Part shown: one piece after another, positions 16,940 through 62,115 of the stretch | Layout: every line of letters starts with the position of its first letter | Numbering within the stretch: the stretch's first letter is position 1 | Assembly: GCA_964459765.1 (NCBI GenBank) | Contig: CAYWNY010000003.1 | Coordinates: forward strand, 12,861-76,860 | DNA length: 64,000 nt | Origin: an uncultured Hyphomicrobiales bacterium | GTDB lineage: Bacteria; Pseudomonadota; Alphaproteobacteria; Rhizobiales; Xanthobacteraceae | Reading direction: 5' to 3' | Translations under genes and position numbers: made by a program | Notes under the pieces: generated by a model | The model's input: the letters and a program-made list of their open reading frames with translations, nothing else | What the model was told of the DNA's origin: nothing | The model's database searches: none

Positions 16940-17563
16940 TCAATCGGAGCCGACCATGCGGGCGACGAGCGCCATGCGCACAAGATCCGACAGGCTGCCC
17001 GCCTGCATCTTGTTCATGAGATTGGCGCGATAAATCTCGACGGTACGCGGGCTGATGCCGAGATCGTCGGCGATCTGCTTGTTCGCCCTTCCCGCCACCA
17101 GCCCCACCAACACGTCGCGCTCGCGGTTCGAGAGCGCCGCCAGCCGGCTTTCGATATCGGCGCGCTCGGCCAACTTCTTGGCCTCGTGATCGTGCTGCTT
17201 GAGCGCCGAACGCACGCTCGCCAGCAAGACTTCGTCGTCGAACGGTTTTTCCAGAAAATCGACCGCACCGATCTTCATGGCCTCGACCGCCAGCGGCACA
17301 TCGCCGTGACCGGTAATCACGATCACCGGCACCTCAATCTTCAATTCCCGCAAACGCCGTAGCAGATCGAGCCCGCTCAAGCCGGGCATGCGCATGTCGC
17401 TGATCACGCAGCTCAAACCTTTGACCGGAAGCTTATCGAGAAAGGCGCCGGCCGAAGAGTAGCTTTCCACATCGAGCTGCACGGTGCGTAACAGGAAGAT
17501 CAGCGATTCGCGCAATGCTTCGTCATCGTCGATGACGTGCACGATTCCCCTGTCAACCGACAT
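16940..17563 (-). CDS. fixJ: Response regulator FixJ (receiver + LuxR/FixJ HTH)
   Basis: The sequence runs [21 protein letters not shown]...[13 protein letters not shown]...[36 protein letters not shown]. The start at 17563 overlaps the fixL stop by 11 nt. The longer track ORF N-terminus is out-of-frame fixL sequence. Confidence 0.93.
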
Positions 17564-22669: not shown

Positions 22670-23518
22670 TCAGATCTGCGGCGCCGCGCGGACGATGTGA
22701 CCGTCCGCAGCGAAGTGCAGGCCGCATTCTTTCTTCTCGGCCTCTTCCCACCACCATCGTCCGGCGCGTTCGGGCTCCCCTGGCTCAACCGCACGCGTGC
22801 AAGGCGCGCAGCCGATCGAAAGAAAACCACGGTCATGCAGCGCGTTGTAGGGCACGCCGTGGGCCTGCACGAATGCCAGCGTCCGTTCGCGCGTCCAGTC
22901 GAACAACGGGTTGGCCTTGATCAGGCCGTGCTGCGCGTCGAACGAAACCGCAGCGAAGCGCGCGCGGTCGGCGGATTGATCGGCGCGAATGCCGGTGATC
23001 CACGCGGCGCTATCCCTGAGCGCGCGGGCAAGCGGCGCAACCTTGCGTACCGCGCAGCATTCCCGGCGCGCGGCGACGGAGGCACGGAATCCATCGATGC
23101 CTTGCCGGCCAACCAAAGCTTCGACGCTGGCGTGGTGCGGCGTGAAGGCGCGGATGCGGGTTGCATAGCGGCGTTCGGTCGCCGCCCACACCGCATGCGT
23201 TTCGGGAAAAAGCCGTCCGGTGTCGAGCGTCACGACATCGATCGCCAGCGCCCGTGCAAATATCGCATGTGCAATGGCCTGATCCTCGAGGCCAAAACTC
23301 GTCGTAAAGGTGATAGGGCCGGCGACCTGATCGCGGACGGCAGCCAGGCGGCCGAACAAGTCGCGTGTGCCAAACGTGAGCGCTAAAGCGGTTGCGACGT
23401 CCGCCGCGTTCGCTTGGGCGGTCGCTAGGTTGACGGCTTCGGGAACGGCAGTGGTTTCGGCGACGGGATCGCCACGAAGCGCCGGGGGCGCGGCGCTCGA
23501 CTGCACAATTTCGGACAT
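22670..23518 (-). CDS. cysH: Assimilatory adenylyl-sulfate (APS)/PAPS reductase CysH, Fe-S type
   Basis: It has the ECGLH C-terminal motif and the cysteine pairs RRECCAVRK and GCAPCT, which are characteristic of 4Fe-4S APS reductases. The start is taken at MSEIVQ..., placed by ORF-track arithmetic. My own base count there differs by 1 nt. Confidence 0.85.
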
Positions 23519-41659: not shown

Positions 41660-42049
41660 TCAGAGCCCATCGGTCGCGATGCCGAACGCGACTAGCGACG
41701 CGCGCAGCGTCGAGAACTGATAGGGCTTGGAAAGGACGGAGAGCTTCTCATAACGAGCGAGCTCGGCTGCGGCCGTCTCGGCAGACTGTCCGGATGCGAC
41801 GATGATCGGCAGATCGCGCCGCATTTGCTTAAGCTCGACGACTAAGTCGGCTCCGTCGCGGTCCGGCAGACCGAGATCGACGATCGCGATCTCGAAGTCC
41901 GAAATCTCGGCCGCCGCCAACGCCAATGCCCGCGAAGCCGACGGCGCTTCCGCAACCTCGAAACCCATTTCACGCAGAGCGTCCGCGGCAAACATCGCCA
42001 CGAGCGCTTCGTCCTCCACCAAAAGGGCGTATGGGCATCCGTTGCGCAT
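41660..42049 (-). CDS. Single-domain response regulator (receiver only)
   Basis: The sequence runs MRNGCPYALLVEDEALVAMF...AIVDLGLPDRDGADL...SKPY and is 129 aa. An exact EcfG promoter lies about 115 nt upstream. Confidence 0.85.
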   Translation of the reverse strand: MRNGCPYALLVEDEALVAMFAADALREMGFEVAEAPSASRALALAAAEISDFEIAIVDLGLPDRDGADLVVELKQMRRDLPIIVASGQSAETAAAELARYEKLSVLSKPYQFSTLRASLVAFGIATDGL

Positions 42050-42169
42050 GAGACCACATGAAAGGTTTGACGAACCGCGCATTCTCCACCGGACGTCGTA
42101 TAAAGACCAGCGCGCTCACGAAGCCGAGACCGGAGACGGCAGGATTCGGCCGCTGTCGAGCCTTGGGAA

Positions 42170-42218: not shown

Positions 42219-42244
42219 GGAACCAAGGCGCCGGCCGGCGCGTT
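42219..42244 (+). promoter_or_regulatory. EcfG-type general-stress promoter GGAAC-N17-CGTT
   Basis: GGAAC (42219-42223), then CAAGGCGCCGGCCGGCG, then CGTT (42241-42244). It sits back-to-back with the minus-strand promoter 25 nt away. Confidence 0.7.
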
Positions 42245-42249
42245 GAGCC

Positions 42250-42333
42250 ATTGTCCGACTGCACCTCCCCCCTCGCCCCCCGTGCGCAGTCGGGAAGAGA
42301 GGCGCTGCCTGCAGGCAGCGCCTCTTTGTCTTT
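42250..42333 (+). ncRNA. Candidate EcfG-dependent small RNA with C-rich loop (GsrN-like), copy 1
   Basis: The unit starts about 6-8 nt after the promoter -10. Stem CCGACTGC (42255-42262) pairs with GCAGTCGG (42286-42293) around the 23-nt loop ACCTCCCCCCTCGCCCCCCGTGC. A 12-bp terminator hairpin AGAGGCGCTGCC-TGCA-GGCAGCGCCTCT (42298-42325) and TTGTCTTT follow. The only ORF across it is the non-native N-terminal extension of track ORF 42251..42622, whose real product is CsbD from ATG 42422. Confidence 0.5.
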
Positions 42334-42421
42334 GGCGGCGGCCCGTTGCGCAACTCGGAACCCCTCGCGCATCCCGTTGTTTAAACCGGGTGAAGGCAAC
42401 TTTACCCGGGGACAAAAGACC

Positions 42422-42663: not shown

Positions 42664-43464
42664 TTATGCCGTGGCGCGACGCTTCTTGTTGCTGGCATTC
42701 TGTTCGAAAAAGAGGACCTGACTTATCAGCGCCGACACCGCGGCGGGCTGATAAGGCTTGGCGATCAGGAACGCGGGCTCCGGTCGCTCGCCGGTCAGAA
42801 ACCGCTCCGGATAAGCGGTAATGAAGATAACCGGCACCTCAAAACGATGGAGCATCTCGTTGACGGCATCGAGGCCGGAACTGCCGTCCGCCAACTGGAT
42901 ATCGGCGAGGATCAGGCCCGGGCGTTTTTGCGCCGCCAATTTCAACGCGTCATTTCTCGTACGCGCCACGCCTACAACGCGGTGACCCAGGCTTTCAGCC
43001 AGTGACTCGAGATCAAGGGAGATAAGAGCTTCGTCCTCGATGATGAGCACATCGGTCGCGATCTGATCGGCAAGCTCGCGGCCGAACTGATCGATGAGCG
43101 CGCGCAGCGTGGTGACGTCAACGTCGAGGATACGGGTGGCCGACTCTTCTCCGAACATTTCCAGCGAAGTCAGCAAAAACGCCTGCCTCGGCAGCGCGCT
43201 GATTTGCGCAAGACGCCGCTCAGGCGGAAAGGTAGCGGCGTCACGGGCCTCCGCATTGAGCGGAACCGAATTCCAGATCCGCGTGAAAGTGCGGAACATG
43301 TCCACGCGAGTGTCGCCGTCTGCACTGACGAGGGTAGGCTGTTTGACCACGGCTTCCAGCGTGGCCGCTACGTAGGCATCGCCGGATTCCTGACTGCCGG
43401 TCAGCGCTCTGGCGTAACGGCGCAGGGCTGGAAGATGGCCTCTAACCGACTGAGCTAATTGCAT
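42664..43464 (-). CDS. phyR: Anti-anti-sigma response regulator PhyR (sigma-like domain + receiver)
   Basis: 266 aa. The N-terminal ECF-sigma-like region (LPALRRYARALTGSQESGDAYVAATLE...LPRQAFLLTSLEMF) is followed by a receiver (VLIIEDEALI...ILADIQLADGSSG...KPY). It is divergent from nepR. Confidence 0.95.
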   Translation of the reverse strand: MQLAQSVRGHLPALRRYARALTGSQESGDAYVAATLEAVVKQPTLVSADGDTRVDMFRTFTRIWNSVPLNAEARDAATFPPERRLAQISALPRQAFLLTSLEMFGEESATRILDVDVTTLRALIDQFGRELADQIATDVLIIEDEALISLDLESLAESLGHRVVGVARTRNDALKLAAQKRPGLILADIQLADGSSGLDAVNEMLHRFEVPVIFITAYPERFLTGERPEPAFLIAKPYQPAAVSALISQVLFFEQNASNKKRRATA

Positions 43465-43509: not shown

Positions 43510-43534
43510 AACGCCTCCGTTGAAAAAAAGTTCC
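43510..43534 (-). promoter_or_regulatory. EcfG-type promoter of phyR (minus strand) GGAAC-N16-CGTT
   Basis: The plus strand reads AACG (43510-43513), then CCTCCGTTGAAAAAAA, then GTTCC (43530-43534). It lies about 45 nt upstream of the phyR ATG at 43464. Confidence 0.75.
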
Positions 43535-43603
43535 GGTGCCGGAGGAACTATTTGTTTTGGCTGGCTTTCTCCAATACCCAGAAACAAGTATAAGCCATAT
43601 GCC

Positions 43604-43831
43604 ATGGCAGACCAGGGGGAGTTGTTGAAGAAGCCGCAAAGGCGTGCCGCGATCGCACAAGCGGCCGTCCGGGACGCGAAGGGGCGCTTGGGGCCGGAAA
43701 TTCAAAATAAGATCGGTCAACATTTGCGTGGCCTCTATTCCGACATCGTCGACCAAGGCGTGCCCAACCGTTTCGCGGAGCTTTTACGCGACTTGGACGA
43801 TTCGGACCTGGACAAGCCGAAGCCGGAATAG
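43604..43831 (+). CDS. nepR: Anti-sigma factor NepR
   Basis: The ATG at 43604 gives a 75-aa product with the NepR core IGQHLRGLYSDIVDQGVPNRFAELLRDL. It is divergent from phyR. Confidence 0.88.
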   Translation: MADQGELLKKPQRRAAIAQAAVRDAKGRLGPEIQNKIGQHLRGLYSDIVDQGVPNRFAELLRDLDDSDLDKPKPE

Positions 43832-43939
43832 CCGTCGAGTACCCGGCTCTTGCCGGGCCGTTGCGCGACCAGCAAAGCCGTCGGTGCTAGCCCGCGGTCG
43901 TTCGGCCGCCAGTTTATCGAAACGTCGATAAGCCCTGGC

Positions 43940-43964
43940 GGAACGAGTGGACCAATTGGCCGTT
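43940..43964 (+). promoter_or_regulatory. EcfG-type general-stress promoter GGAAC-N16-CGTT
   Basis: GGAAC (43940-43944), then GAGTGGACCAATTGGC, then CGTT (43961-43964). It lies about 285 nt upstream of the HWE kinase ATG at 44252. Confidence 0.65.
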
Positions 43965-44251
43965 TGACCCATAGAGAACCGATCACCACACCAGGCGGGG
44001 ACCTCAAGAATGCTCCGGCCTTTAAATCGGCTACCGACTGTCGCACCGGACTCGACCTCAAACGTTGACGCCTCTGTTGCTTTGCTTAGGCCAAATGATG
44101 GACGTCCGTGTGCCGCCGGGGCGCCCATTGTTTAATTTCGAAGCCTTTTTCGTCGCGAACCTTTCGCTCATTTAATGAGCGAACGGACGTCCCGTACGGC
44201 GACCATGCTACAATAAGAGGTGGCGGCACAGTCCGTAGTGGGGAGAGCACC

Positions 44252-45253
44252 ATGGCAAGCGATCTTCAACGGATTGAGGCAACAGCGTTGCTCGCGGCCA
44301 TCGTGAAATTTTCTCACGACGCCATCGTCAGCAAAGATTTGAACGGCATTGTGACGTCGTGGAACGCCGGAGCCGCCCGAATGTTCGGCTATGCCAGCGA
44401 GGAGATCGTCGGCCGCTCGATCCTGACGATCATACCGCCGGATCGCCACAGCGAAGAAAGCTATATTCTGGATCAGGCCAGGGCGGGAAAAACCATCGAG
44501 AACTACGACACCGTGCGGGTGCGCAAGGATGGCGGGCAATTGCACGTATCGCTGTGCATATCGCCGATACTGGGCGATGACGGAAGAATTCTCGGTATTT
44601 CTAAGATTGCGCGCGACATTACCGGCCTGAAGATCGCGCAGCAGACACAGAATCTTTTGCTGCGGGAGCTGAACCACCGTTCGAAAAATCTGCTGGCGGT
44701 TGCCGATGCCATCCTGCGGCAGACGGCCAAAAACACGCCGCCGCAAGAACTGGTCAGCCGGGTCAGCCGGCGATTCCAGGCGCTGTCGGTCAATCAGGAT
44801 CTGCTGATCGATAAAGATTGGCGGGGCGTCGAACTTGAACACGTCGTTCGGTCGCAGCTTGCCGCATTGATCGACGATGCCGGCGCGCGTCTAGCTGTCG
44901 GCGGTCCGACGATCGTCCTCACTCCAGCCGCGGCGCAGGCCATCGGGCTCGCCATTTTCGAACTCGCCAGCAATGCGCTCAAATTCGGCTCACTTTCGGC
45001 TCCGCACGGGCGTGTCGACGTCGATTGGCGCGTGTCGGGCGAAAGCCAAACCGAGGAGCTGGTCTTGAGCTGGCGGGAATCGGGCGGTCCGCGCATCAAA
45101 GCCCCCAAGCACAAAGGGTTCGGAAGCACCGTTATTGAGGGCATGGTCGCCCGCTCGCTGGTTGGCCGTGCGTCGGTCGACTACGCCCCCACCGGCATCG
45201 TGTGGCAGCTGGTCGCGCCGACGGCGTCATTGCTCGGCGCCGAAGTCGCTTAG
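44252..45253 (+). CDS. PAS-domain HWE/HisKA2-family histidine kinase (PhyK-like candidate)
   Basis: The ATG at 44252 has a GGGAGA RBS. The PAS domain (IVSKDLNGIVTSWNAGAARMFGY) is followed by the H-box ELNHRSKNLLAV typical of HWE/HisKA2 kinases and a degenerate ATPase (KHKGFGSTVI). The product is 333 aa. Confidence 0.85.
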   Translation: MASDLQRIEATALLAAIVKFSHDAIVSKDLNGIVTSWNAGAARMFGYASEEIVGRSILTIIPPDRHSEESYILDQARAGKTIENYDTVRVRKDGGQLHVSLCISPILGDDGRILGISKIARDITGLKIAQQTQNLLLRELNHRSKNLLAVADAILRQTAKNTPPQELVSRVSRRFQALSVNQDLLIDKDWRGVELEHVVRSQLAALIDDAGARLAVGGPTIVLTPAAAQAIGLAIFELASNALKFGSLSAPHGRVDVDWRVSGESQTEELVLSWRESGGPRIKAPKHKGFGSTVIEGMVARSLVGRASVDYAPTGIVWQLVAPTASLLGAEVA

Positions 45254-57543: not shown

Positions 57544-58618
57544 AGCGCGCTGCGGCACTTGCGCTTCCTCGGCCACGAGGCGGAGCTGCGGCGCGGATGC
57601 CCGCAGCAGCCCGCGATAAACCGCAAGATAATCCTGCGCCATGCGTCGCGCGGTAAAGCGCTCCTCGAAACGCCTGCGGATATTGTCACGCGAAAGCTGG
57701 CTAAGGCGATCGACGGCGCCGATGGCCCCGGTTTCGTCTTCGACGACGAAACCGGTCAGGCCGTCTTCGATAATTTCGGACGCGGACCCGCGGTTAAACG
57801 CAATGACCGGCGTACCGCAGGCCATGGCTTCGATCATCACCAAGCCGAATGGTTCGGGCCAATTGATGGGAACCAGGAGCGCGACCGCGCCGCTCAGGAA
57901 CGCGGACTTCTCGCGGTCGTTGATCTCGCCGATATACTCGACGCGTACCGATTGGATCATCGGCCGGATTTGCTCTTCGTAATACGTCTGATCGACGGGG
58001 TCGATCTTCGCGGCAACCTTGAGCGGCACGCCGCAGTGCTCGGCAATGCGGATCGCGCGGTCGAGGCCCTTCTCCGGTGCGACGCGGCCCAAAAAGGCGA
58101 AATAGGAAGGCTTGATCGGTCTGGGCTCCAGCAGGTCCGCCGGCAGGCCATGGTGAACGGTGCGCACCCAATTGGCCTGTGGCAGCGGCCGCCGCTGCGA
58201 ATTCGAGATCGAGACCACCGGAAGCGACGAAAACACTTCGAACACCGGTTGGTGCTCGGGCAGATCAAGCCGGCCGTGCAGGGTGGTGATGAACGGCGTC
58301 GCCTGCCGCGAGAACAGCGAGAAAGGATAATAATCGAGGTGAAAGTGCAGAAAATCGAAATCGCCGGCGCGGCGATATACCTGCTCCAACATCATCATGA
58401 AGCGCATTAGGGTCGCGGACCGCGCCGTCGAGGCGAAGCGCCCGCGGCCAAACCTTAGCCAGTCGAGCCGACGTCCGCGAGTCGCCACTCGCGAAGAGGG
58501 TCACGTCGTGACCGAGCGCGATGAGTTCCTCGGTCAGCCAAGATACCACTCTCTCCGTGCCGCCATAGAGCTTCGGGGGAATGGCCTCGGTAAGCGGGGC
58601 GACCTGCGCAATGTGCAT
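57538..58618 (-). pseudogene. GT4-family glycosyltransferase, one frameshift
   Basis: The N-terminal part MHIAQVAPLTEAIPPKLYGGTERVVSWLTEEL...VRDPNAL is in ORF 58265..58618. The remainder MMMLEQVYRR...FHLDYYPFSLF...EPFGLVMIEAMACGTPV is in ORF 57538..58488. The length is 3n+1, and removing one T near 58400 (CTT to CT) restores the frame. Confidence 0.8.
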
Positions 58619-58837: not shown

Positions 58838-60616
58838 TTGATGGCAGCAGGTGCCGCGCCTATGGCCGATCTTTGTGGTTATGCCAGCCGTCCCCTCGCA
58901 TTTGTCTTCCATTACGTTCGGCTGCGGCCGATGTCTCATGCAATCATTCTTGCGGCGGTGCTGTCCGCCGTGGCCTGCTCGGTCGGCACGCAGTATGGCG
59001 TGAAGTTTTTGGTCGACATCCTGTCGAACCATAACAACACCGACGTGTGGATTGCCTTTTGCCTTCTTGGAGCGCTGGTAGCCGCCGACAATTTGCTCTG
59101 GCGGGTAGCGAGTTGGATCGCCAATTTCGCTTTCGTCGGCGTGACGGGTGACTTGCGGCGCGATTTGTTCCGTCACCTCACCGGTCATTCGCCCAGCTAT
59201 TTCGCCGACCGCCTGCCGGGAACCCTGGTCGCCCGCGTAACGGCAACGTCGAATGCGATCTTCACCGCTGAAAACATGTTCATCTGGAATGTGTTGCCGC
59301 CGTGCGCGGCGACGGTCGCCGCCATCGCGCTTGTCGGCACGATAAGCCTTCCGATCGCCGCCAGCCTAGGCGTTGTTGCCGGCATCATGGTGTGCATGAT
59401 GTTTCGCTTGGCCGCGCGCGGGCGTCCGCTGCACCACGATTTCGCCGACAAGGCCGCCGCGGTCGATGGAGAAATGGCCGACGTAGTCGGCAATATGCCG
59501 CTGGTCCGCGCTTTCAGCGGACTCCTGCGCGAACACCGCCGCTTCGATGCGACAGTCGAACGTGAAATGGAGGCTCGGCGCCGCAGCCTCTATTATCTGG
59601 AGAGACTGCGCATCCTCCATGCGTTCGTGACTATCGCGCTGACGCTGGCGCTCTTGGCCTGGGCAATCGTGCTGTGGCAACAGGGCAACGTCACGACCGG
59701 CGATGTCGTACTGGTCTGCACGCTCGGCATGTCGGTCCTGCATGCTACGCGTGACTTGGCGGTTGCGCTCGTCGACATCATTCAGCACATCGCTCGCCTG
59801 TCGGAGGCGCTACTGACCTTACTGGTGCCACACGAATTGCGCGACCACCCTGAGGCAACGGCGCTGGTTCGCCGCGGCGCCAGCGTGAGGTTCGAGCACG
59901 TTCATTTTCGCTACGACGGTCGCCCCATCTTCCAGGATCTCAATCTCAGTTTGATGCCGGGCGAGCGGGTCGGGCTGGTAGGGCCGTCGGGCGGTGGCAA
60001 ATCGACGTTGTTGACCCTATTGCAGCGCTTCTATGACGTTCAGCGGGGGCGGATTCTGATCGACCACCAGGACATCGCCCGGGTCACGCAGCAAAGCCTA
60101 CGCGAATATATTGGCGTGGTGCCGCAAGATATCTCGCTATTTCACCGCTCCGTCGCAGAGAATATCCGTTACGGCAGGCCAACTGCCTCGGACGACGAAG
60201 TTCTCGAAGCTGCAATCGCGGCGCGGTGCGATTTTATCGAAGACTTTCCGGCGGGCATCCGCACGATCGTCGGGGATCGCGGCGTGAAATTGTCGGGGGG
60301 ACAGCGCCAGCGTATCGCCATTGCCCGCGCCTTCCTCAAGAACGCGCCGCTTTTGCTGCTCGACGAAGCAACGTCCGCGCTGGACGGCGAGTCCGAAGAA
60401 GCGATCCGCGAAGCCTTGGGCCGGCTGATGAACGGGCGCACGGTGATCGCCATCGCCCATCGCCTGTCCACGGTGCGAAGTTTCGACCGGATCGTCGTGC
60501 TCCAACTGGGCCAAGTGATCCAGGACGGTCCACCCGATCTGCTGATGGGCAGGGAGGGATTCTACCAAAGGCTTGTGCAGCGCGAGATGCACCGCCTGAC
60601 CAGTCAAGCGGCCTAG
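58838..60616 (+). CDS. ABC exporter, fused permease + ATPase (MsbA/NdvA-like half transporter)
   Basis: 592 aa with six N-terminal TM helices, Walker A GPSGGGKST, the signature LSGGQRQR and Walker B LLLLDEATS. Confidence 0.9.
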   Translation: MMAAGAAPMADLCGYASRPLAFVFHYVRLRPMSHAIILAAVLSAVACSVGTQYGVKFLVDILSNHNNTDVWIAFCLLGALVAADNLLWRVASWIANFAFVGVTGDLRRDLFRHLTGHSPSYFADRLPGTLVARVTATSNAIFTAENMFIWNVLPPCAATVAAIALVGTISLPIAASLGVVAGIMVCMMFRLAARGRPLHHDFADKAAAVDGEMADVVGNMPLVRAFSGLLREHRRFDATVEREMEARRRSLYYLERLRILHAFVTIALTLALLAWAIVLWQQGNVTTGDVVLVCTLGMSVLHATRDLAVALVDIIQHIARLSEALLTLLVPHELRDHPEATALVRRGASVRFEHVHFRYDGRPIFQDLNLSLMPGERVGLVGPSGGGKSTLLTLLQRFYDVQRGRILIDHQDIARVTQQSLREYIGVVPQDISLFHRSVAENIRYGRPTASDDEVLEAAIAARCDFIEDFPAGIRTIVGDRGVKLSGGQRQRIAIARAFLKNAPLLLLDEATSALDGESEEAIREALGRLMNGRTVIAIAHRLSTVRSFDRIVVLQLGQVIQDGPPDLLMGREGFYQRLVQREMHRLTSQAA

Positions 60617-60637: not shown

Positions 60638-60662
60638 GGAACGAACGGCCGCGGCCCGCGTT
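60638..60662 (+). promoter_or_regulatory. EcfG-type general-stress promoter GGAAC-N16-CGTT
   Basis: GGAAC (60638-60642), then GAACGGCCGCGGCCCG, then CGTT (60659-60662). It lies 22 nt after the ABC exporter stop, and no plus-strand gene follows. Confidence 0.65.
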
Positions 60663-60668
60663 GCCATT

Positions 60669-60747
60669 ACGGACGGGGTCCTTCCCGCCTCAGCCCCCCA
60701 ATCCCCGTCCAGGAGCCCCGCGCGCACTCGCCGGGGCTCTTCGTTTT
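60669..60747 (+). ncRNA. Candidate EcfG-dependent small RNA with C-rich loop (GsrN-like), copy 2
   Basis: Stem GGACGGGG (60671-60678) pairs with CCCCGTCC (60703-60710) around the 24-nt loop TCCTTCCCGCCTCAGCCCCCCAAT. A terminator follows: GAGCCCCG (60713-60720) pairs with CGGGGCTC (60732-60739), then TTCGTTTT. The architecture and the loop core CCTC(A)GCCCCCC match the unit at 42250-42333. Confidence 0.5.
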
Positions 60748-60801: not shown

Positions 60802-62115
60802 TCAGGCCACGCTTGGCTGCGCGGGTCTGCGCCGCGGCCCCATGAAGCCAAACAAAAATCCAGCAACCTTACGCATCTGGATCTCCTCCGAGCCCTCGGT
60901 GATCCGATAGCGCCGGTGATGGCGGTAGATGTGTTCGAACGGCTTATGGCGGGAGTAGCCGACGCCACCGTGCACCTGCATGGCGCGATCGGCAGCCTCG
61001 CAGCAGAATCTATTCGCCCAGTAATTGCACATCGACACCTTGTCCGAGAGCTGCTGCTCGATCTCGCTTGGCGTCATTTGACCCATTTCCCAAGCGGTTT
61101 TGCGGATCAGAAGCCGCAGCATCTCGGCTTGGGTAGCGAGTTCGACCAACGGCCATTGGATGGCCTGGTTCTCGGCGAGCGACCGTCCGAACGGTTTGCG
61201 CTGCCGCGCGTATTCCACGCTCGCATTGATGCAATAGACCGCCGCACCGAGCGAGCTCGCCGCCTGGCGAATGCGGTTCTGGTGCACGAAGCATTGCGCC
61301 AATGCGAGGCCATCGCCGACCTTGCCGAATAGCGCATCCTCGGCAACGAATACATCCGTGAAGCTCACCAGGGGATGATCCGTCGGCATGTTAAAGGTCC
61401 ACAAATACTCTTCGACTTTCACGCCTTCGGCGTTGGCCGGCAGCAGGAAGCAGGTGATACCACCGCCGTCGCCGTCCTGTCCCGAAGTCCGGGCAAACAG
61501 CGCACAATGGGTGGCGACGTGCATGCCGGTGGTCCACATCTTCTCGCCGCCGATCAGCCAGCCCGCGACGCCGTTGCGTGTCCCGCGGACGGCTCGCGTC
61601 TCCATGTGCGTGGCATCCGAGCCATGATTGGGTTCCGTCAGGCCGAAGGCGATGCGGTATTCTCCGGTGATGCTGCCCTCAATCATGGCCTGCTGCTCGG
61701 GCCTGCCGTAAAGATCAAGCATGGTCACAAACGGCAGATTGCCGACAATGGAATGCTCGTTCTGCAGATCGTTGTGGAGGCCAAGACCCTTCGCCGCAAA
61801 GTGTTCGCGTATCACCGCCATCCACAAATCTGAACCGTCGCGGCCGCCGTACTTCTTCGGCAAGGCGAAGCGGTAATGGCCGGCGCGGTCGGCAAGCTCC
61901 CTGGCGCGTCCCAGCAAAGCTTCCCAATCCGGGCGCGGCAACCCCCCGCGTTCGAAATCAGTCCGTGCCCACTCGCGCCGATGATCGAAGAAACGGATGT
62001 TGTCGTCCGCGTTTTCGAGCGGGCGGATCTCCGCCTCGATGAAATCATCCAGGCGATCGAGATAGTCGATTAGACCGCTCGGCAGATTGAAATTCATGTC
62101 GAGGTTCGTTGCCAA
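60802..62115 (-). CDS. Acyl-CoA dehydrogenase family protein
   Basis: 437 aa with ACAD blocks (AFGLTEPNHGSDA, the middle beta-domain, and a C-terminal helical domain with YRITEGSEEI). Confidence 0.9.
   Translation of the reverse strand: MATNLDMNFNLPSGLIDYLDRLDDFIEAEIRPLENADDNIRFFDHRREWARTDFERGGLPRPDWEALLGRARELADRAGHYRFALPKKYGGRDGSDLWMAVIREHFAAKGLGLHNDLQNEHSIVGNLPFVTMLDLYGRPEQQAMIEGSITGEYRIAFGLTEPNHGSDATHMETRAVRGTRNGVAGWLIGGEKMWTTGMHVATHCALFARTSGQDGDGGGITCFLLPANAEGVKVEEYLWTFNMPTDHPLVSFTDVFVAEDALFGKVGDGLALAQCFVHQNRIRQAASSLGAAVYCINASVEYARQRKPFGRSLAENQAIQWPLVELATQAEMLRLLIRKTAWEMGQMTPSEIEQQLSDKVSMCNYWANRFCCEAADRAMQVHGGVGYSRHKPFEHIYRHHRRYRITEGSEEIQMRKVAGFLFGFMGPRRRPAQPSVA

Follow-up and report, generated by a model that had tools for sequence, protein, structure and literature searches.

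In the 64-kb stretch of DNA analysed here (the window), the genes for a subfamily B ABC exporter and an acyl-CoA dehydrogenase converge on an intergenic gap that holds an EcfG-type promoter motif, a hairpin with a C-rich loop and an intrinsic terminator, in that order (Table 1). We refer to this unit as copy 2 and to a similar unit near phyR as copy 1. The promoter motif begins after 21 nt of sequence past the ABC stop codon, and ~55 nt separate the U-tail from the 3' end of the dehydrogenase gene. Copy 2 sits between unrelated genes, ~17.2 kb from phyR and ~18 kb from copy 1, within a stretch rich in EcfG-type motifs. The source organism, uncultured and related to Bradyrhizobium and Pseudolabrys, is known from metagenome contigs only; its dehydrogenase is ~82% identical to Bradyrhizobium proteins, and its PhyR is 73% identical to a Pseudolabrys MAG protein.

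Table 1. Coordinates of copy 2, copy 1, their neighbouring genes and the candidate target within the window.
Feature	Position	Strand	Remarks
Copy-2 EcfG-type promoter	60638-60662	+	-35 GGAAC 60638-60642, 16-nt spacer, -10 CGTT 60659-60662; direct reading
Copy-2 leader GCCATTAC	60663-60670	+	Start predicted at ~60666-60670 from the usual EcfG -10-to-start distance
Copy-2 5' hairpin	60671-60710	+	Stem GGACGGGG (60671-60678) / CCCCGTCC (60703-60710), 8 bp; fold
Copy-2 loop TCCTTCCCGCCTCAGCCCCCCAAT	60679-60702	+	24 nt, C-rich, contains CCCCCC
Copy-2 intrinsic terminator	60713-60747	+	Stem GAGCCCCG (60713-60720) / CGGGGCTC (60732-60739), tail TTCGTTTT (60740-60747); fold
ABC exporter, subfamily B (upstream flank)	58838-60616	+	584-aa product by metagenome gene callers; stop ends at 60616
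Acyl-CoA dehydrogenase (convergent flank)	60802-62115	-	3' end faces copy 2
Copy 1	42219-42335	+	EcfG-type promoter 42219-42244 (17-nt spacer), hairpin with loop ACCTCCCCCCTCGCCCCCCGTGC, terminator
Receiver-domain gene	41660-42082	-	Flanks copy 1
phyR	42664-43464	-	330 nt from copy 1
FixJ-type response regulator gene (receiver and GerE domains)	16940-17563	-	Adjoins FixL-like PAS kinase
Candidate target site	17086-17111	-	26 nt of the FixJ-type regulator mRNA, codons 151-160, GerE/LuxR helix-turn-helix domain

The first-pass annotation, which was made from the letters of the sequence alone, had described an exact GGAAC-N16-CGTT promoter that points at the convergent dehydrogenase gene with no ORF to drive, followed by an 8-bp stem displaying a 24-nt C-rich loop and by a terminator hairpin with a T-tail. 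Every string that it quoted for copy 2 was found in place by direct reading, the promoter is exact and drives no ORF, and sequence and fold agree on both hairpins. The copy-2 RNA folds into exactly two hairpins (-41.3 kcal/mol, z = -3.1; 0 of 200 shuffled sequences were as stable), giving a minimal RNA with a predicted length of ~80 nt. The terminator consists of a GC stem of 8-10 bp with an 11-nt loop, followed by the U-tail, and was not flagged by a simple terminator scan because this loop exceeds the limit of 8 in that tool. Since the hairpin lacks a T-run on the minus strand, it would stop plus-strand transcripts only. No ATG, GTG or TTG was found by direct reading upstream of the terminator tail in the copy-2 transcript, and in six metagenome contigs from this organism gene callers left the gap empty. 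A small ORF within copy 2 was ruled out, there being no start codon ahead of the terminator tail.

Copy 2 is carried by two relatives, L167 (GCA_052915805.1) and L168 (JGI 3300076623), whose ABC proteins are 97% and 93% identical to that of the window, respectively; the L168 contig ends at 60706, inside the copy-2 hairpin. In L167, the -35 and -10 elements and the leader, hairpin, linker and terminator stems, 75 nt in all, are unchanged, and the substitutions lie in the spacer (1/16), the terminator loop (4/11) and the upstream (3/21) and downstream (23/54) sequence. In L168, the nine nucleotides of the -35 and -10 elements are likewise intact while 3/16 spacer positions and 13/21 upstream positions have changed, and the leader, 5' stem and loop together carry two changes in 40 nt (one in the stem, one in the loop, none in the leader). 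The retention of the promoter elements and RNA parts while the spacer and flanks diverge is a hallmark of a promoter in use and of an RNA under selection, and this pattern of substitution indicates that copy 2 is a non-coding gene, running from promoter to terminator, that is under selection. The earlier proposal of a free-standing promoter-to-terminator unit without an ORF therefore gains purifying selection in both available relatives. In the comparison of homologues that the same annotation had suggested, the loop is kept (no change in L167 and one in L168), and compensatory changes in the stems were not found in these two close relatives, one of which ends inside the hairpin.

Beyond these two relatives, copy 2 was absent near the dehydrogenase gene in the best 80 genomic loci (Bradyrhizobium, Afipia, Caulobacter, sphingomonads and others), all of which also lack the adjoining ABC gene. 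It was likewise absent downstream of ABC-exporter homologues with at most 85% identity (79 metagenome loci, 69-84%), where the downstream DNA is unrelated, and a search of a plasmid collection returned chance matches only. Because copy 2 is missing at the matching position in more distant relatives, it is confined to one lineage. Many of the ABC homologues are followed, ~30-130 nt past the stop, by a conserved non-coding block of their own (L090, L092, L098, L099, L103, L104, L106, L107, L110, L113, L115, L118 and L120) that reads roughly AAAGTTGTTTC ... TTCATTCGCC ... AAGAYTCTCTTATTTT ... GCATTGAC and in several loci stands ahead of a gene starting MSD; it resembles a conserved regulatory region and does not occur in the window.

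The same comparisons bear on two other readings of the gap. In the first, the two hairpins would belong to the ABC exporter mRNA as its 3' UTR and terminator, the promoter motif would be fortuitous or inactive, and any sRNA would be processed from that mRNA. The unit does begin only 21 nt past the exporter stop, its terminator is the only one from that stop to 60747, and this terminator might just as well end transcripts of the ABC gene, whose end lies ~100 nt upstream. However, the intact -35 and -10 elements of L168 amid a changed spacer and upstream flank are what a used promoter leaves behind, ABC homologues in other lineages are followed by quite different sequence that lacks the element, and a plain 3' UTR leaves the conservation of the 24-nt loop unexplained; we consider this reading decidedly unlikely. 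In the second, the promoter would act in cis, with read-through toward the dehydrogenase gene producing an antisense RNA or transcriptional interference. Copy 2 indeed faces the 3' end of that gene, 55 nt past the U-tail, yet its terminator is a strong one, the 54 nt from tail to gene are poorly conserved, and action in cis neither requires nor explains a conserved C-rich loop, so that we assign it very little weight.

The surroundings of copy 2 fit a stress sRNA, since the window holds phyR, nepR, a HWE kinase gene, csbD and trehalose genes behind EcfG-type motifs. Exact GGAAC-N16-17-CGTT sites number 11 in the window compared with 1.2 expected, and the density of EcfG-type motifs is concentrated between 35800 and 60700. 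Most of the 11 sites stand before genes typical of the general stress response, and motifs of this type precede phyR, the HWE kinase gene downstream of nepR, a single-domain receiver gene, the genes for an LTXXQ protein and an ASRT protein, the trehalose cluster (trehalose-phosphatase/GH15/GT20) and the gene for a DUF1328-like small membrane protein. Units without an ORF follow only two of the 11 sites, and these are copy 1 and copy 2. An EcfG-type site at 57897 (+) lies antisense, inside a glycosyltransferase gene. As to the sigma factor gene itself, in the stretch 43520-45253 nepR is followed by a HWE histidine kinase gene in place of ecfG, and tblastn with a Pseudolabrys EcfG query detected no ecfG in the 64-kb window. 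In Pseudolabrys, Rhodoplanes, L181 and L185, ecfG directly follows nepR, and L175, a 93% relative, seems to match the gene order of the window, with an uncharacterised 319-aa gene, not ecfG, after nepR.

How much of this arrangement could arise by chance was gauged with a descriptor of C-rich-loop hairpins. Besides copies 1 and 2, it matched a single short hairpin in the window, making three matches against a shuffle mean of 2.45; this count is not above that of shuffled sequence, and the hairpin alone is therefore unremarkable. The descriptor gave 37 matches in 1.25 Mb of other loci, and in 10 of these an EcfG-type motif lies no more than 60 nt upstream. All 10 are members of the C-rich-loop sRNA group described below, and the motif precedes none of the other 27. 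The combination of promoter, hairpin and terminator in copy 2 is not chance. The short third hairpin of the window lies at 23470-23495 (-), has the loop CCCCCGGCGCTT and is not one of the EcfG-motif sites that the window contains.

Copy 1, which is placed between the receiver-domain gene and csbD, provides the nearest standard of comparison. It matches its earlier description except for the promoter spacer, which has 17 nt instead of 16. Two relatives with PhyR proteins 92-93% identical (L175 and L176) retain it, with changes in the terminator stem that are compensatory, and Pseudolabrys (L177-L180) and Rhodoplanes serenus (L186 and L187) show the same arrangement at that position (EcfG-type promoter, C-rich-loop hairpin, terminator), downstream of phyR and on the opposite strand. 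No such unit was found near phyR in L181 or L185. In an alignment of copy-1 orthologues (A2: L175, L176, Pseudolabrys L177 and Rhodoplanes L186/L187), changes on both sides occur in 7 of the 19 pairs, and 97.4% of the cells are paired, compared with 32-59% when the 3' partner was slid by 1-3 columns as a control. The covarying stems that the first-pass annotation had proposed to look for are thus present in the homologues of copy 1, and the alignment supports copy 1 as a phyR-linked GsrN-like sRNA that persists, with compensatory changes in its stems, in Pseudolabrys and Rhodoplanes. Rfam contains no relevant family for these RNAs (copy 1, L175, L177 and L186). GsrN-like sRNAs linked to phyR have been predicted for Rhodopseudomonas palustris and Bradyrhizobium diazoefficiens (PMC5869019), and the phyR-linked copy-1 units found here agree with that prediction of Tien et al. 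2018 for Bradyrhizobium and Rhodopseudomonas.

Several further features were seen in the stress loci of these relatives. In Rhodoplanes serenus, a second EcfG-like motif, GGAAC-N17-GGTT, stands ~120 nt upstream of the phyR-linked sRNA (L186:11196-11319, -) and precedes a short unit. This unit contains a hairpin (GGGAGGCGC/GCGCCTCCC), the G-rich sequence GGAGGGAGG, which shows partial complementarity to the C-rich loop of the adjacent sRNA, and a T-run. Within 10 kb of the same stress locus are a long CRISPR array (L186:1-5141), whose repeats score 31.2 bits to CRISPR-DR16 (threshold 35), and a clear BjrC1505 sRNA (L186:19948-20085, 102 bits). In L181, the 5' leader of phyR contains GGGGGGCGAGG (2451-2461, +), which is exactly complementary to the copy-1 loop core CCTCGCCCCCC; such a match would fit sRNA feedback on phyR, although chance alone predicts one or two in the sequence that was searched, and it may be meaningless.

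GsrN of Caulobacter crescentus is transcribed from a sigma-T promoter, has a 5' C-rich loop in which six C residues recognise G-rich mRNA sites, and ends in an intrinsic terminator (PMC5869019). As the first-pass annotation had proposed, copy 2 is built in the same way: compared by description of the architecture, it has the exact promoter motif, matching the EcfG consensus, then a 5' hairpin with CCCCCC in its C-rich loop, and then a 3' intrinsic terminator. GsrN differs in having a second exposed region toward its 3' end and in being processed by an endonuclease, whereas copy 2 consists of two hairpins only; moreover, GsrN has been proven to target the katG leader, while the candidate for copy 2 lies inside the coding region of a fixJ-type gene. 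Matches to GsrN by BLASTn are confined to the Caulobacteraceae, and proximity to phyR-nepR-ecfG served as the criterion for homologues outside that family, although C. crescentus gsrN is itself distal to these genes (PMC5869019).

No Rfam family reached its gathering threshold anywhere in the window. The best match of copy 2 was to BjrC68 (RF02353, a Bradyrhizobiaceae sRNA), with 17.3 bits and E = 0.037 in a search of 301 nt; because the gathering score is 39, copy 2 is not a member by the Rfam criterion. The alignment of copy 2 runs along the entire model, taking in a UACGG start, a hairpin and a terminator rich in GC; copy 1 gives no match. Among all the loci that we collected, a regular-expression search for BjrC68-like sequences returned copy 2 alone. 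In B. japonicum USDA110, the putative start of BjrC68 is at 657253, away from the stress locus, and no promoter activity was seen in the conditions tested (PMC4842269).

A scan of the whole window for sites complementary to the loops of both copies returned a single outlier for copy 2, located in the coding region of a FixJ-type response regulator (Table 1). All 24 nt of the copy-2 loop pair with this site (21 Watson-Crick and 3 G-U pairs), with two 1-nt bulges in the target and a duplex energy of -46.0 kcal/mol. Best sites for 150 composition-matched shuffled loops had a mean of -29.1, a standard deviation of 2.1 and an extreme of -34.3, placing the fixJ duplex ~8 standard deviations beyond, and the best non-family site for the copy-2 loop in 1.245 Mb of other loci reached -35.6. 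The match between the copy-2 loop and fixJ is clearly non-random. The similarity to fixJ stops exactly at the edges of the loop. In the nearest FixJ orthologues (~90% amino-acid identity), the site carries 4-7 changes per 30 nt and the duplex weakens to -32 to -35 kcal/mol. Two other readings were considered and rejected: copy 2 as the remnant of a fixJ or luxR pseudogene, given that the alignment ends at the 24-nt loop and tblastn found no protein-level trace, and a third sRNA copy at 17.1 kb, the site being inside a coding region with neither promoter nor terminator. On this complementarity, the fixJ site may be a target of copy 2; that the match instead reflects the origin of the loop sequence seems to us less likely than its being a target.

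The first-pass annotation had further claimed that copies 1 and 2 are paralogues that share a seed, and here the evidence is mixed. What copy 2 has in common with copy 1 and the other phyR-linked sRNAs is the type of promoter, the order of parts, a gap of 8-10 nt that separates the hairpin from the -10 element (8 nt in copy 2, 10 nt in copy 1 and its Pseudolabrys and Rhodoplanes counterparts), the loop core CCUC(N)GCCCCCC and, in the case of the Pseudolabrys member, the tail UUCGUUUUGG. The core is CCUC(A)GCCCCCC (11-12 nt) in the two window copies and has only two independent background matches in 1.28 Mb; its G is present in both copies and missing in Pseudolabrys and Rhodoplanes. Both window copies also have the leader GCCATT, and the copy-2 tail CTCTTCGTTTTGG matches the tail of the Pseudolabrys phyR-linked sRNA (CTCATTCGTTTTGG), with no other match in 1.28 Mb. 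Architecture, spacing and loop core are thus held in common, but the stems and terminators of copies 1 and 2 have no sequence in common, the copy-2 stems are unrelated to the conserved CCG.C.GC stem of the phyR-linked group, and copy 2 is found in very close relatives only.

Covariance models gave a similarly divided result. R1, a full-length model of the copy-1 orthologues that was built without copy 2, aligned to copy 2 over its full length with 22.0 bits (E = 2.4e-4), the best non-self match in the window (next 12.9), yet plain terminators elsewhere reach 20-28 bits with it. Since these are ordinary terminators in unrelated loci, the E-values of R1 are optimistic; that generic terminators alone score in this range is also compatible with the hairpins of copy 2 being an exporter 3' UTR, the reading already judged decidedly unlikely. 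R2, a hairpin-only model in which the Pseudolabrys row carries five N to keep register with A2, gave no match at 60660-60712 with filters off and E up to 10. Nor are the two loops equivalent, as the copy-1 loop reaches only -28.9 kcal/mol on the fixJ site that the copy-2 loop matches at full length, and its best site anywhere in the window has -32.0.

Copy 2 could on these grounds be a genuine EcfG-dependent sRNA that is not a paralogue of copy 1, having arisen independently, for example by recruitment of a promoter and a terminator around a fixJ-antisense-like sequence, with convergence on a C-rich loop. The unrelated stems and terminators, the miss by R2, the 24-nt fixJ match that only the copy-2 loop possesses and the narrow lineage would all suit such an origin. 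Convergence would, however, have to account for a CCTC(A)GCCCCCC core shared down to the G that Pseudolabrys and Rhodoplanes lack, for the copy-1 leader, for a tail identical to that of the Pseudolabrys member and for the same order and spacing of parts, and we regard independent origin as unlikely. Judged by these shared elements, copy 2 is of the same kind as copy 1 and probably related to it; it may have descended by duplication.

The best explanation of the locus, as read from its sequence, is that copy 2 would be a second, lineage-restricted representative of the C-rich-loop sRNA group, the first being copy 1 beside phyR, and we hold it reasonably likely that copy 2 is an sRNA gene under a general-stress promoter. 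Under stress, phosphorylated PhyR would capture NepR and so free EcfG, which would read the GGAAC-N16-CGTT promoter and begin transcription a few nucleotides ahead of the 5' hairpin. This hairpin would present the 24-nt C-rich loop as the seed, and the GC-rich terminator would end the RNA, leaving a U-tail. The loop would then pair with G-rich stretches of mRNAs and alter their stability or translation, as GsrN does in Caulobacter, the best candidate target in the window being the coding region of the FixJ-type regulator. For copy 2, we infer transcription, dependence on EcfG, action in trans, the target and any role of Hfq. A more specific version, in which copy 2 is a recent general-stress sRNA and a diverged sibling of the phyR-linked GsrN-like sRNA whose whole loop has been shaped to pair with the fixJ-type coding region, is one that we put forward tentatively and as rather improbable in its entirety.

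AbcR1 and AbcR2 of the Rhizobiales are sibling sRNAs encoded in one genome, with related seeds, that may share or divide their targets. The AbcR genes stand in tandem and are clearly alignable, whereas copies 1 and 2 lie 18 kb apart and can be aligned only in the loop. The literature that we searched does not describe GsrN-type sRNAs as duplicated in this clade. Experimental characterisation of EcfG-dependent sRNAs with C-rich loops is limited to Caulobacter, and elsewhere such sRNAs are predictions tied to the phyR locus; what is new here is a second copy, unlinked to phyR, that is present in one lineage, appears to be conserved like a working gene and has a loop that has drifted from that of its sibling. 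If the fixJ pairing is real, activation of EcfG would directly lower or alter FixLJ-type signalling, which would tie an oxygen/redox two-component system to the general stress response at the post-transcriptional level. If confirmed, copy 2 would represent the duplication of an sRNA followed by the acquisition of a new target within the alphaproteobacterial general stress response, with fixJ as a concrete target.
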